From an uncultured delta proteobacterium (GTDB lineage Bacteria > Desulfobacterota > Desulfobacteria > Desulfobacterales > SpSt-501): a DNA stretch of 64,000 bases. Below the pieces are notes generated by a model. The model saw only the letters and a program-made list of their open reading frames with translations, searched no databases and was not told the DNA's origin. Position numbers and translations under genes: made by a program. How positions within the stretch are numbered: the stretch's first letter is position 1; every line of letters starts with the position of its first letter. The stretch covers positions 65,155-129,154 of the forward strand of contig CAVQTH010000023.1 in NCBI GenBank assembly GCA_963716325.1, given 5' to 3'. This document shows positions 30,457 through 59,716 of this stretch, piece after piece.

Positions 30457-30550
30457 GGAGAGATGTCCGAGCTGGCCGAAGGAACACGACTGGAAATCGT
30501 GTGTGCTGCTAATAACGGCACCGTGGGTTCGAACCCCACTCTCTCCGCCA
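30457..30550 (+). tRNA. tRNA-Ser (anticodon GGA), CCA encoded; prophage integration target
   Basis: Acceptor GGAGAGA/TCTCTCC. Anticodon stem CACGA/TCGTG with loop CTGGAAA. Long variable arm. T-arm GTGGGTTCGAACCCCAC. Confidence 0.93.
30521..30550 (+). repeat. attL core (30-bp direct repeat, 3' end of tRNA-Ser GGA)
   Basis: CCGTGGGTTCGAACCCCACTCTCTCCGCCA is identical to 59581-59610. The flanking bases differ on both sides. Confidence 0.9.
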
Positions 30551-30591
30551 TTAACTTTCTGATTTAATTGTATATTTTGTGTCGAGGGGGG

Positions 30592-30622
30592 TACAAATGA
30601 GGTGCAAATGGAATGCAAATCG
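30592..30622 (+). repeat. three phased 9-mers TRCAAATNR (candidate integrase/RDF arm-type sites, attL arm)
   Basis: TACAAATGA, TGCAAATGG and TGCAAATCG start at 30592, 30603 and 30614, an 11-bp phasing. Confidence 0.5.
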
Positions 30623-30747
30623 CCTCACCCCCCGACCGCTGTCCGCTGCCCCATTCAATACCTCCATTTCGCCCTCCGCCTAATTTTATTTTCTGCATAG
30701 CCGCCTTATCTTTTCCCATGCGGTTATACCTTCTATTTCGATCGCGT

Positions 30748-30802: not shown

Positions 30803-31045
30803 ATGAAACTGGACCGCATCACAATAGACCCTGACAAAATGAACGGGCAGCCGTGCGTTCGGAACATGCGCCTGACCGTCAAGCGCATTGTGGAGCTGGC
30901 GGCGCTGTATCCCAATCGCAAGGAGCTGCTGCGGGAATACCCCGAGCTTGAGGATGAGGATATCCGTCAAGCGCTGACCTATGTGGCCACCTACCTGGAT
31001 GACCGAATCGTCGAGCTGCCCTTGAACCATGAAACTGCTGCTTGA
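30803..31045 (+). CDS. DUF433 domain protein (putative antitoxin)
   Basis: ITIDPDKMNGQPCVRNMRLTV..., the typical DUF433 core. Strong RBS. Overlaps the downstream PIN-like gene. Confidence 0.75.
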   Translation: MKLDRITIDPDKMNGQPCVRNMRLTVKRIVELAALYPNRKELLREYPELEDEDIRQALTYVATYLDDRIVELPLNHETAA

Positions 31046-31397
31046 CCAAGGGCTGCCCCGATCGGCGGCCATGCTGCTAAGAGAGGGCGGGATCGACACG
31101 CTGCACGTGGGCGAAATCGGCCTTGCGGCCGCTGCTGACGATGAAATCCTCCAGAGGGGACGGCAGGAGGGCCGTGTGGTCGTCACTCTGGACGCCGACT
31201 TTCATTCTCTGCTTGCATTTTCGAAAGCCGTCTCTCCTTCGGTGATCCGCATACGAATCGAGGGATTGACGGGGCCGGTGGCGGCGAACGTAATAAGAGA
31301 GGCGGTCTTGCGCAGCAAAGAGGATCTGGAAAACGGCGCGCTTGTGACGGTGCAGCCCGGCCGGATCCGAATCAGGCGATTGCCGCTTTCAGCTTAG
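31029..31397 (+). CDS. DUF5615-family PIN-like nuclease (putative toxin)
   Basis: MKLLLDQGLP...DDEIL...VVVTLDADF pattern of Mut7-C/PIN-like DUF5615. Overlaps the DUF433 gene by 17 nt. Confidence 0.7.
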   Translation: MKLLLDQGLPRSAAMLLREGGIDTLHVGEIGLAAAADDEILQRGRQEGRVVVTLDADFHSLLAFSKAVSPSVIRIRIEGLTGPVAANVIREAVLRSKEDLENGALVTVQPGRIRIRRLPLSA

Positions 31398-31434
31398 AGA
31401 ATCCGCCGGCGGTTCCCGCGGGCGAAAGCGCGCG

Positions 31435-32454
31435 TCACTTCATCGCCCGAACGTTGTCCACTACCTTCTTCAAAACTCCCATGTCGTGCTCGGCGTAGTG
31501 CTTTTTCGTGATTGCTACGTTTGAATGGCGGAGAAGCGCGCTGATCTGGTTCATATCGACGCCTGCCTTTGACAGGGCCATCCCAAGCGAGTGCCTCCCC
31601 GCGTTGTTCAGCGGAAAGTATCCTACGCCCGCCTCTTTGCATGCCGCGTTCCATATATCGTAGATGTTCTTTTTGTAGACGCGCCCGGTGTCCGGATTGA
31701 TGAAAACGTATGGCGTGAGGTTTTGGCCGGCGGCCTCGATGGCGATCCGTGCTCCCTCTGTAAGCGGTATTGCCTCCTCTCGCGACTGCTTGACGATTTG
31801 CCAGACCTCACCGCCGTCCGCGCTCGGCGCGAACGTCCCCGCTATGACGATGCAATCACGCTGCACGTCAGCTTTCCGCAATGCACGGGCCTCCGAGACC
31901 CTACAGCCCGTTGCAAACAGGAAGGCATAGATCGGTCTATGCCTCACCGGGATCTTCTCAAGAACGGCCGCTTGTGTGTCGGCGTCGAGGTATTTGATCT
32001 TCTTCTGGTCGAGCTTGATGGGGATCAGCGCCGGCACTTGCGAAAGATACCCGTTTTCTCGTGCGTCCCGCAGGATCTCGAAAAGCAGCGCCTGGATGTT
32101 TTTTTTGTACTTGGGGGATTTAGGGATGGCGTTCAGAAACCGCTTGATCTTTTCATGCGACAGGTCCTCCCAGCCCCGCGGTTTGCCCTCGAACCATCCG
32201 CCTAGCAGCTTCTCGCCCTCGAGAATCAGACCGTTGGAATAGCGCAGCTCGCCGCCTTGCTTCTGGACGATGATCCCGGACTTCCATCCGACGCAGTCCT
32301 CCGACTTGCGCGCCTGGTAGCGCAGCTTGTCGATCGAGACGATGATCGCCGCGGGGTCGTTCGTGTATTTAACGAGATAGCAGTCCTTGTTGAAGGGATT
32401 GAGGCTGCGGGCGCGGCAGATGTGCATGAAGAAGATGACTTCCTGGTCGGTCAA
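31435..32454 (-). CDS. tyrosine integrase with an in-frame N-terminal Bet/RecT-like fragment (chimeric ORF, TTG start)
   Basis: The C-terminal two-thirds is a tyrosine recombinase (FATGCRVSEARAL, AGRHSLG, LLRHSNVAITKKHY). The N-terminal ~100 aa (LTDQEVIFFMHICRARSLNPFNKDCYLVKY...IIVSID) resembles the Bet/RecT annealase core. No ATG precedes it. Confidence 0.8.
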   Translation of the reverse strand: MTDQEVIFFMHICRARSLNPFNKDCYLVKYTNDPAAIIVSIDKLRYQARKSEDCVGWKSGIIVQKQGGELRYSNGLILEGEKLLGGWFEGKPRGWEDLSHEKIKRFLNAIPKSPKYKKNIQALLFEILRDARENGYLSQVPALIPIKLDQKKIKYLDADTQAAVLEKIPVRHRPIYAFLFATGCRVSEARALRKADVQRDCIVIAGTFAPSADGGEVWQIVKQSREEAIPLTEGARIAIEAAGQNLTPYVFINPDTGRVYKKNIYDIWNAACKEAGVGYFPLNNAGRHSLGMALSKAGVDMNQISALLRHSNVAITKKHYAEHDMGVLKKVVDNVRAMK

Positions 32455-32528
32455 GCGGAGTGACGCCGCGCTCGAACGCCGGCTCTTGATGTTCGGTTTC
32501 CGCCGCAGGGTTCAATGCCGCCGAAAAA

Positions 32529-33098
32529 TCAATCATGGTCTGCCTCCTTGCATGGGTGGAAGTAACGATACGCCGTCAACGCGGAGAGAAACGCCTGGAA
32601 GTCCCGGTCGCTCGACGGGTAGATCACGGCTTTGGGCATGCCGCCGTCCGGCCGCAGCATCAGCGCGACGGCGAGGGGGCGCAGCATGTGCCCCAGGTGC
32701 CGGTAGGATTTCGACGATAGGTGCCGGTAGGCTGCGATCTGCGACTTCCAGGTCGGGGATTCGACGGCCGGGGTCTTGTAGTCCACGACGGCCCCGGCGC
32801 CGGAAACAAGCCGGCAGATCAGGTCCGGATGCCCCTTGTAGCCCAGGGCCTCGTCGACGAGCTCGGGCTCAACGTCGATCACGTCCCGGACCATTTCATC
32901 GAGCCAGGTCTCAAGCGATTGCAGATAGCCCTCGTCGCCAGGCTCAAGGGGGGTCACCTGGAACACGTCGGAGAGGCGGGCAGCAGCTGCAGCGTGGATC
33001 CGTCTGCCACGGGCCGCCGCCTCCTCAAGGGTTTTTGGAGGGACGCCGGAAAAATCAGAAAACGGCCGCAGGACCTCCGTCACGCTCAGAATCTTCAT
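32529..33098 (-). CDS. RecB-family PD-(D/E)XK exonuclease (phage Exo-like)
   Basis: GHPDLI...VVDYKT...SQIAAY (D, D-x-K and QxxxY motifs). Lies directly upstream of the Bet-like fragment, in the position of lambda exo. Confidence 0.65.
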   Translation of the reverse strand: MKILSVTEVLRPFSDFSGVPPKTLEEAAARGRRIHAAAAARLSDVFQVTPLEPGDEGYLQSLETWLDEMVRDVIDVEPELVDEALGYKGHPDLICRLVSGAGAVVDYKTPAVESPTWKSQIAAYRHLSSKSYRHLGHMLRPLAVALMLRPDGGMPKAVIYPSSDRDFQAFLSALTAYRYFHPCKEADHD

Positions 33099-33343
33099 GG
33101 GTCATTTGCCCTGGATAGGGCGCACCTATCCTGTTGGTGCTGAAAAACCTTCCTGAATCCGGTTGCTCTGCCTGGCGAGGACTTAACGGCTCGGAAGCCT
33201 AATCCGTCGCATCTGAGAGCGGCGGGGCTCACAGCTGGGGCCGCGGATACCGGCTGCGGCTCGTGCTCGCTTGCCCGCCAGAAAGCCCTACTTGCCGCCG
33301 CAACCGCTATGCGAGAGGGGCAGCTTTCCGGCTTTTAATGTCA

Positions 33344-33372
33344 ATTATAATAACATTAAATGTCAGTGTCAA
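33344..33372 (-). promoter_or_regulatory. PL-like early-left promoter (TTGACA-17-TATAAT) with embedded operator
   Basis: On the minus strand, TTGACA (33372-33367) and TATAAT (33349-33344) with a 17-nt spacer containing the palindrome ACATTTAATGT. It is a mirror copy of the PR module. Confidence 0.7.
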
Positions 33373-33470
33373 GAACATTTGAATGGATTTAAAAAGCAGG
33401 GGCGGGGAGCCGTTAGGAAATGTTTCGGGCCTGGTCCGATTCCGATGCGGGCACTTTTGTTGGAGGGTGG

Positions 33471-33935
33471 CTATGCGGCCCGGTTGTTGGTCGCCTCGCT
33501 GTTCGACGGTACGATGGGCCTGCGCAGCTTTTTGGGGTTCACTTCCGGCGGATCTCCGGTGCGGCGGTCAAGAAAATAGCGTTGAGAAATATGGGTTAAG
33601 GTGATTTCTAAATTACGGATCTTGTCCTTGTGTTCTGAAAGTTCTTTCCTTGACTCTGCTAACTCTTTGTAAAGATTTAATAATTCTGATGATTGCTGAG
33701 GCGTGTCAAAGTCGGTCCCAAAAATATCCTTGATGCACTCTCCCATGTCCTTCGCGGACAGGTTGTTTTTCATCATGCTCAACAATTTACCGATCTCGTC
33801 GGCCGTCCAGGGAGTCGCCCCGCTCAGCTTTTGAGTGATCGAAGAATGGGTCTTGAAGCCAAAGACAAGGGCGACATCGCGCTGCTTTAAGCCTGCCTTT
33901 TTAAACCATTTTTTTAGGATAGCAGGATTGAACAT
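33471..33935 (-). CDS. phage repressor-like HTH protein (CI analogue, no S24 peptidase domain)
   Basis: HTH LKQRDVALVFGFKTHSSITQKLSG. Divergent from the cro-like gene. AGGAGG RBS. Confidence 0.6.
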   Translation of the reverse strand: MFNPAILKKWFKKAGLKQRDVALVFGFKTHSSITQKLSGATPWTADEIGKLLSMMKNNLSAKDMGECIKDIFGTDFDTPQQSSELLNLYKELAESRKELSEHKDKIRNLEITLTHISQRYFLDRRTGDPPEVNPKKLRRPIVPSNSEATNNRAA

Positions 33936-34549: not shown

Positions 34550-35329
34550 ATGGGAGCGGAAAAGGAAGCCGAACACAGCCCGCAGGTTGAGGACGGCTAT
34601 ACCCGGATAGCCAATGAGCTGCTTGAGGCTTTGATTGATATCCGGATGCCGGGCGAGGTCCGCAGGGTATTCGACTACATTTTGCGTATGACCTACGGCT
34701 ACCATCGCAAAACGTTTGATACGACCCAGCGCAAAATTTCGCGGAGGCTGAACACAAGCCAGCAAAGGGTCTTTGAGGCCCTGCGCTGGCTGACCAGGGC
34801 GAATATGGTTGTCAACACGAAAAACCGTGTCGATCTGAGTCCTGACTGTCTGACTACATTGGGTATCCAGAAGCGATACCGGCTATGGAGTCCAACACGG
34901 AAAACCGTGTCGACACGAAAAAGCGTGTTAAGCCGAAACGTAAAACCGTGTTGTATCAACACGGAAAAGCGTGTCTTTACCTATAAAGAAAATTCTAAAG
35001 ATAATTTTAAAGAAAAGGGAATGGGCGCGTTAGACGCGCCTCCCTCGCTCGGTTCTGATAACAAAGAAGAAAATCCGCTTAAAAAACGCCGGCAGCTTCC
35101 GCCCGATTTCTCCCTCACCGATGAACTGAAAGTCTACGCCGAAGGGCAGGGCATCAACGGAAACAGGGTTGAATCCGTGTTCGCCCACTTCTGCGACCAC
35201 CACCGGGCGAAAGGGTCTGTCATGCTCGACTGGACGGCTGCCTGGCGGACCTGGGTCCGGAACGAAATGCGATTCAACCGCGGGAAAGTAGATAAAACGC
35301 GCCCTCCGGAGGACCTGCTGAAATGGTGA
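34550..35329 (+). CDS. phage replication initiator (lambda O-like N-terminal domain)
   Basis: EDGYTRIANELLEALI...RVFDYILRMTYGY is typical of the phage O-protein N-terminal domain. The gene contains iterons and an AT-rich tract internally. Confidence 0.75.
   Translation: MGAEKEAEHSPQVEDGYTRIANELLEALIDIRMPGEVRRVFDYILRMTYGYHRKTFDTTQRKISRRLNTSQQRVFEALRWLTRANMVVNTKNRVDLSPDCLTTLGIQKRYRLWSPTRKTVSTRKSVLSRNVKPCCINTEKRVFTYKENSKDNFKEKGMGALDAPPSLGSDNKEENPLKKRRQLPPDFSLTDELKVYAEGQGINGNRVESVFAHFCDHHRAKGSVMLDWTAAWRTWVRNEMRFNRGKVDKTRPPEDLLKW
34815..35015. repeat. putative phage origin: five palindromic iterons ACACG-N6-CGTGT plus an AT-rich tract
   Basis: Iterons at 34815-34830, 34895-34910, 34913-34928, 34937-34951 (degenerate) and 34959-34974. 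AT-rich tract at 34975-35015. Confidence 0.7.
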
Positions 35330-59397: not shown

Positions 59398-59438
59398 AGA
59401 CTCAACAGTGATGTTAAAAAACAAATTCACCAGGGGTC

Positions 59439-59498: not shown

Positions 59499-59509
59499 CC
59501 AAACGATCG

Positions 59510-59529
59510 TGCAAATGGAGTGCAAATGG
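59510..59529 (+). repeat. two phased TGCAAATGG 9-mers (candidate arm-type sites, attR arm)
   Basis: TGCAAATGG at 59510-59518 and 59521-59529, 11-bp phasing. Same motif and orientation as the attL-arm copies. Confidence 0.5.
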
Positions 59530-59580
59530 CTGAGCGGGTTTCAAAAAATAAATATAAATTACGGCAGGTTACTGAGGGGG

Positions 59581-59610
59581 CCGTGGGTTCGAACCCCACT
59601 CTCTCCGCCA
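59581..59610 (+). repeat. attR core (30-bp direct repeat; tRNA-Ser 3' remnant)
   Basis: Identical to 30521-30550. Confidence 0.9.
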
Positions 59611-59716
59611 CTTCCTTTGTTCTGTTTCGACGGCAAGCGTCGGCGTGGCATGACGCCGGCGCACCGAATGCCCTCGTTCTCCTCATCCCGCCGACAGGAA
59701 CCCGACGTTCAGGGAT

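Follow-up and report, generated by a model that had tools for sequence, protein, structure and literature searches.

A recT'-'int pseudogene fusion, probably left by two microhomology deletions, in a P22-like prophage of an uncultured delta proteobacterium

The 64,000-nucleotide stretch of an uncultured delta proteobacterium analyzed here (assembly GCA_963716325.1, contig CAVQTH010000023.1, positions 65,155 to 129,154; hereafter the window) carries a P22-like prophage of roughly 29 kb integrated at tRNA-Ser(GGA), and near one end of this prophage a minus-strand open reading frame (ORF) at 31435–32454 joins part of a RecT annealase to part of a tyrosine integrase. We consider it very likely that this 339-codon ORF is a recT'-'int pseudogene fusion that arose by two microhomology deletions, and that the prophage is probably grounded, i.e., unable to excise, with attachment (att) sites, arm-type repeats, immunity, replication, and late genes that look intact. 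This is ordinary prophage decay and not a new enzyme type.

Counted from a TTG at 32454 the ORF has 339 codons, and the frame is open for 358 residues (339 + 19), the nearest in-frame stop lying 19 codons 5' of the TTG; the original prediction, made from the letters alone, had described just this arrangement, with no ATG at the 5' end, and it can be read in the sequence. Its further claim that the first ~100 residues are annealase-like was borne out by a profile search, in which residues 2–93 matched Pfam RecT (PF03837; profile positions 20–123 of 198, E-value 5.2e-12, 46.2 bits against a cut-off of 24). Residues 162–324 matched Pfam Phage_integrase (PF00589; E-value 2.4e-20, 73.5 bits), and the switch from the one to the other is abrupt, falling within PRGWE/DLSHEK between residues 96 and 97. 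As had been proposed, the sequence here changes suddenly into that of a tyrosine recombinase: by tblastn, residues 46–142 of the RecT protein P0014 map to 32454–32164 (96% identity) and residues 163–405 of the integrase P0001 map to 32166–31438 (92% identity), and these two halves meet at residues 96 and 97. The predicted catalytic boxes were located by alignment to 4a8e, all of R185, K222, R287, H310, and Y320 being kept, and both fragments are free of stops and frameshifts. The description of this part as a short tyrosine recombinase was mistaken, however, as it consists of the C-terminal 243 residues of an integrase of 376–405 residues. In all P0001-type integrases, full-length members included, the first His of the HxxR box is replaced by Asn (NAGRHS; window 31600–31608).

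A search of a 5.8-billion-sequence protein collection returned 47 homologs, none of which (0/47) spans both halves of the fusion ORF. The integrase homologs (364–412 residues) align to residues ~95–339, among them P0001 (405 residues) and P0002 (376 residues), both 92% identical to the integrase part, and the RecT homologs (353–457 residues) align to residues 1–~97, with P0014 (378 residues) 96% identical. The two halves are thus separate full-length proteins in the relatives, which speaks against the genuine annealase/integrase chimera that had been offered as one explanation. In the related contig L001 the gene order is repressor, a 131-residue gene, exonuclease (exo; 189 residues), a 236-residue gene, recT (378 residues), and int, and exo, a 229–236-residue gene, recT, and then int also occur as separate genes in L011, L028, L030, and L032. 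The ancestral arrangement exo-bet-(xis)-int suggested earlier therefore needs to be redrawn: the related contigs have exo, the 236-residue gene, recT, and int, and the nearest of them have no xis between recT and int. As the gap between recT and int holds no ORF in L001 (120 bp), L026 (36 bp), or L032 (114 bp), the idea that a deletion removed an excisionase from this position is not supported; in L011 there are three small ORFs between recT and int.

All the relatives have the 229–236-residue gene between exo and recT (L001 9274–9984), with its start overlapping the exo stop. No Pfam domain was assigned to it, it matches PHROG 10477 "exonuclease" weakly (E-value 1.2e-7), and it could form a third part of the recombination module. 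The integrase cassette that follows varies among the related contigs, with at least four types that are 19–28% identical to each other or to P0001. L001, L011, L026, L028, and L032 have near-identical exo/236-residue gene/recT modules (RecT 86–96% identical over the shared part) followed by at least five unrelated integrase cassettes; in this phage group whole integrase modules, and with them the att specificity, are exchanged directly after the recT stop. A full-length integrase of the window's type, 92% identical, was found in L026, where it starts 36 bp past the RecT C-terminus (a 74-residue ORF 64% identical to residues 315–380 of P0021, E-value 6e-28), and this 36-bp spacer is kept in part upstream of an int pseudogene in a genome of the same genus, G004.

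Comparison with these relatives resolved two deletions. By blastn, window 33114–32448 corresponds to L001 8696–9362, i.e., exo plus the first 89 nucleotides of the 236-residue gene, and window 32453–32165 corresponds to L001 10137–10425, i.e., recT codons ~46–142, the two segments overlapping by 6 nucleotides. A three-way alignment places the first junction at 32448–32453 (minus strand), where codon ~30 of the 236-residue gene runs out of frame into recT codon ~46; compared with L001 about 774 bp have gone, and the microhomology is GACCG, preceded in both parents by GCTCG. This junction itself creates the TTG codon at 32454–32452, and the lack of an ATG for the recT sequence is a consequence of the out-of-frame join. 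The second junction, at 32165–32167 (minus strand) in an alignment with both parents, is in frame and leads from recT codon 142 directly into int at codon 163 as numbered in P0001 (134 in P0002) within the microhomology GGA, so as to give PRGWE/DLSHEK. Taking an L026/P0021-like parent, this second loss amounts to about 1.15–1.3 kb and comprises the final ~240 codons of recT, the spacer, and the initial 133–162 codons of int. The original prediction of a deletion that fused bet to int is accordingly upheld for the recT-int junction, which the relatives demonstrate, but two deletions were involved and not one.

The missing parts are found nowhere else. Integrase residues 1–161 (P0001) and RecT residues 145–378 have no match in the 5.08-Mb, 61-contig genome, P0001 residues 1–162 have none in the window, RecT codons 1–45 and 143–378 are absent from the genome, and the whole genome has a single RecT-family match (49 bits). 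Since the lost halves do not recur elsewhere, the events were deletions, and a translocation or an inversion can be ruled out. A degenerate pattern for the second junction had no match in metagenome_contigs or genome_contigs. No relatives of P0002 were identified in viral_contigs, and a pattern for the recT-int spacer had no match in metagenome_contigs, although G004/L002 has the pattern, so that collection is incomplete.

The history we propose would start from a phage in which exo, the 236-residue gene, recT, and int were four separate genes of an early-left operon. One deletion of about 0.77 kb would have joined the start of the 236-residue gene to recT codon ~46 out of frame, and another of about 1.2 kb would have brought int codon 163 up against recT codon 142, the frame being preserved by chance; both would have been illegitimate, microhomology-mediated events. 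The outcome would be a dead 236-residue gene, a dead recT with no native start and about half of the annealase core, and an integrase deprived of its arm-binding domain and of about half its core-binding domain, with the catalytic domain kept.

The start region of the fusion ORF also speaks for a pseudogene. We identified no Shine-Dalgarno sequence before the TTG at 32454. An in-frame ATG at 32427, with AGGAAG 11 nucleotides upstream, is the start used in the public annotation, where the product is a 330-residue "integrase" recorded from one contig only, of 199,466 nucleotides, which we take to be that of the window. Crossing the TTG in another frame is a 55-codon ORF at 32369–32536 (minus strand) that had escaped the original prediction. 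It begins with the 5' stub (about 30 codons, 32448–32536, minus strand) of the 236-residue gene, which matches residues 1–35 of the L001 236-residue protein with 83% identity; its ATG at 32536, which shares bases with the exo stop (ATGA), is served by a strong ribosome-binding site (AAGGAGG), and after 28 native codons reading continues through recT, in a frame other than that of recT, as far as a TAA at 32369.

The recT fragment (32167–32453, minus strand; codons ~46–142 of a RecT of ~380 residues, by Pfam and tblastn) has no start of its own and no C-terminal ~240 codons, its native start codon and ribosome-binding site having been lost and its 5' end replaced by the out-of-frame stub. Like RecET of Rac and lambda Exo-Bet, it is truly of the RecT family and has a PD-(D/E)XK exonuclease gene upstream of it within an early-left operon; unlike intact RecT and Red-beta proteins, it has no native start and keeps only profile positions 20–123 of 198 (4–187 in intact P0014), leaving the annealase core incomplete. 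P0014 has no sequence match among solved structures, so the retained fold was mapped on the Pfam profile. A further difference from RecET and lambda Exo-Bet is that this phage group has the conserved 236-residue gene between exo and recT, for which we know of no counterpart in lambda Red.

The int fragment (31435–32166, minus strand; by Pfam and tblastn) is the 3' two-thirds of the gene, including the stop codon, with codons 1–162 missing. In P0001 the SAM-like core-binding domain spans residues 124–175 by Pfam (PF14659) and 123–208 by comparison to the solved N-terminal domain 2kkp, and the catalytic domain spans residues 228–390. As the fusion begins at residue 163, the integrase part no longer has the N-terminus that binds the arms, and of the core-binding domain about half is gone; what it keeps is the C-terminal half of that domain and the whole of the catalytic domain. 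The fragments C65 and C170 of lambda Int are catalytic fragments that retain cleavage and topoisomerase activity and are not known to perform arm-dependent att recombination. From the loss of these domains we infer that the fusion product would be unable to assemble an arm-dependent attL x attR intasome or to excise the prophage. The window has one integrase-domain match, and the next-best integrase in the assembled part of this draft genome is 23% identical; a truncated integrase without its arm domain, together with the lack of a close paralog in the genome, leads us to regard the prophage as probably grounded. Elsewhere in this genome there are adjacent tyrosine-recombinase genes in pairs or trios with identical scores (C23:183854-191619, C44:56940-58299, C7:95676-97036, C31:69603-70956, and C34:63003-64356), which suggests multi-copy recombinase-trio mobile elements.

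The rest of the prophage looks intact. It is bounded by an exact 30-nucleotide repeat, CCGTGGGTTCGAACCCCACTCTCTCCGCCA, whose attL copy at 30521–30550 (plus strand) is the 3' end of tRNA-Ser(GGA) and whose attR copy is at 59582–59611 (plus strand), and phased arm-type repeats (GTGCAAATGG-like; GT[GA]CAAATG...) are present just inside both ends (30591–30623 and 59509–59530). In its R, K, R, H, and Y residues, its tRNA 3'-end att core at both ends, and its phased arm-type repeats the system resembles those of lambda Int-type integrases; it departs from them in that the window integrase is without residues 1–162 and in that the whole group has Asn for the first His of HxxR. Between attL and int is a DUF433/DUF5615 (PIN-like) gene pair (30803–31397, plus strand; Pfam), which adjoins int in every remnant of the element that we saw (L002–L010 and L034–L036). 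Beyond this pair come the fusion ORF and exo, a leftward promoter, a repressor/cro-like region, and an O-like replication gene with iterons; then the small and large terminase, a P22-type portal, the major head protein, holin, amidase, and tail proteins; and finally a 2036-residue protein and AT-richer cargo. The terminase, portal, capsid, lysis, and tail genes are all open. Within the O-like gene, at 34804–34975, are five copies of a ~19-nucleotide palindromic repeat (CAACACGnAAAACCGTGTC), which fits origin iterons.

The early-left operon made up of exo, the stub, and the fusion ORF is faced by a pL-like promoter at 33344–33372 (minus strand; TTGACA-17-TATAAT, 12/12 consensus positions), the sole promoter-like site within 31300–33500. 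The exonuclease gene itself (32529–33098, minus strand; 189 residues) is intact, with a PD...DYK motif, a match to PHROG 298 "exonuclease" (E-value 4.6e-14), and 96% identity to its L001 homolog across all 189 residues. A RecB-family exonuclease had been predicted upstream of the fusion, and the PHROG match and motif bear this out for an exonuclease; "RecB-type" is a reasonable term yet weakly shown, as the Pfam PDDEXK_1 match falls under the cut-off (E-value 0.0077, 16.6 bits against 22). Upstream of exo, a 45-residue ORF (33095–33232, minus strand) stands where L001 (8313–8708) encodes a 131-residue membrane-like protein, and ~270 bp are absent relative to L001 (window 33117/33114 against L001 8427–8695). 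We could not call this a third deletion because the region differs between L001 and L011 too, and ordinary mosaicism is also possible. Likewise the L001 VRR_NUC and 121-residue genes, of which the window has neither copies nor remnants, are read as a mosaic difference and not as losses by decay.

Related genomes contain more reduced forms of the same element. In the same-genus genome G004 (L002) the interval between the tRNA gene and dnaX contains only an int pseudogene, with one TAG stop and ATA in place of the start codon, and the DUF433/DUF5615 pair; chromosomal synteny between the window and G004 resumes at 59437. Closer relatives (L005–L010, 91–96% DNA identity) have an int that is truncated at codon ~176 and borders on unrelated DNA, in L034–L036 the truncated copy is further frameshifted into ORFs of 115 and 143 residues, and P0004 is another frameshifted int copy. 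The int remnants of G004, L005–L010, and L034–L036 are all beside the DUF433/DUF5615 pair and tRNA-Ser, and separate lineages show independent breaks in the 5' region of int, at codons 163, ~176, and ~218. These relatives are later stages of the same decay, in which the int-proximal end persists, and the window is the earliest stage. In L005–L010 and L034–L036 the truncated int adjoins an alpha/beta-hydrolase gene, with a DDE_3 (IS630-like) transposase as well in L034 and L035. The window's genome contains none of this alpha/beta-hydrolase and DDE_3 flanking DNA, and the L005-type flank is uninformative as a clue to the window's ancestry.

Substitution rates give a relative date. The ratio of nonsynonymous to synonymous substitution rates (dN/dS) is 0.08 for the recT fragment in comparisons with L001 and L011 and 0.03–0.07 for the int fragment in comparisons with L026, L027, L005, and L007. 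The divergence thus took place under selection, and as there are also no stops or frameshifts, the deletions appear to be recent on that scale. Between the window and L005, the synonymous rate (dS) is 0.04–0.17 for int and the DUF433/DUF5615 pair and 0.26–0.28 for the chromosomal flanks, a difference that fits a separate, more recent acquisition of related elements.

Grounding of prophages by recombinase mutation has already been described, and the cryptic prophages Rac, DLP12, e14, and Qin of E. coli K-12 have been reviewed as defective prophages (PMC6379469). The element described here resembles such grounded prophages in being att-flanked, in having a disabled recombinase gene and internal deletions that leave fragments and fusions, and in having remnants at the tRNA site in related genomes. 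It differs from the grounded K-12 prophages in seeming to be at a very early stage, with damage confined to its recombination/integration corner, and in that its failure to excise is only probable.

Several points weigh against our reading. We found no relative with an intact recT and exactly this integrase type on one long contig; the adjacency of the two depends on L026, a contig of 1.6 kb in which recT is represented by its last ~66 codons. The genome looks like a metagenome-assembled one (61 contigs, contamination 9.35), and both junctions come from this single assembly. The dN/dS of 0.034 between independently truncated int copies (the window against L005 and L007) could mean continued selection on a catalytic fragment, and the excision failure is drawn from domain loss.

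The foremost of the competing explanations, which we nevertheless hold to be very unlikely, is that int and the DUF433/DUF5615 pair were an islet already resident at tRNA-Ser when a RecT-bearing phage with another integrase entered, by secondary-site integration or illegitimate recombination, and that a boundary deletion then took the 3' end of recT together with the int and att that the phage had brought and the 5' part of the int already there. Such an islet would account for the int and DUF433/DUF5615 genes held without a prophage at the same site by G004/L002 and L005–L010, for the four or more other integrase types that close phage relatives carry past near-identical recT genes, and for the dS values of the int region below those of the flanks. 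Yet L026 places this very integrase type 36 bp past a RecT C-terminus, with the spacer partly kept at the G004 int; a single pair of att cores encloses the whole 29-kb element, and the arm-type repeats just inside the one core recur just inside the other; its order of recT, int, att, cargo, and late genes is that of L011; and neither another integrase nor another att site is evident in the window. An assembly artifact, either a contig chimera or a collapsed multi-strain consensus in which one or both junctions are not real, is still less probable in our view. Contig number and estimated contamination are typical of a metagenome bin, and no other assembly searched has the fusion, but the junctions share only 3–5 nucleotides with the parents, far under any assembler overlap, so that reads must span them and overlaps cannot have made them; moreover, both sides of each junction are in the same prophage, between matching att sites on one 199-kb contig, and the missing segments are on no other contig of the bin. 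Least credible is a functional chimera or domesticated integrase fragment whose expression the early-left promoter would drive and which selection would maintain for some role (for example in warding off related phages that enter the cell, or through residual cleavage or topoisomerase activity): although the 358 open codons, the full set of catalytic residues, the ATG at 32427 with its AGGAAG, the perfect upstream promoter, and the low dN/dS between the two truncated int copies are in its favor, the architecture was seen in this genome alone, each of the two domains is truncated within its fold, the start region is crossed by an out-of-frame ORF with strong initiation signals, a recent cut of each copy from a working phage gene would explain the low dN/dS, and in several samples the sister truncated copy has acquired a frameshift as well, with stops in other copies, from which it follows that selection does not maintain the fragments.

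Returning to the recT'-'int pseudogene fusion, its first implication is for annotation: the public 330-residue "integrase" should be relabeled as a recT'-'int pseudogene fusion and should be assigned no RecT or integrase function. It also advises caution: where two domains share one open frame in a prophage, a deletion may have brought them together by chance. We regard as unlikely, if somewhat less so than the alternatives above, that more is at stake here, either because an excision-dead yet otherwise complete prophage would respond to induction by in situ replication and headful packaging, for which the intact att sites, the consensus early promoter, the O-like gene with its iterons, and the open late genes can be named, or because the catalytic int fragment that several lineages have beside DUF433/DUF5615 is kept for a function of its own. 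Were the former true, the induced prophage would package the neighboring chromosome (the dnaX-recR side) and would constitute a locked-in platform for lateral transduction. As it stands, the window offers a clean, datable snapshot of the first step in prophage domestication, in which the integration/recombination corner has been hit and the rest of the phage is untouched.

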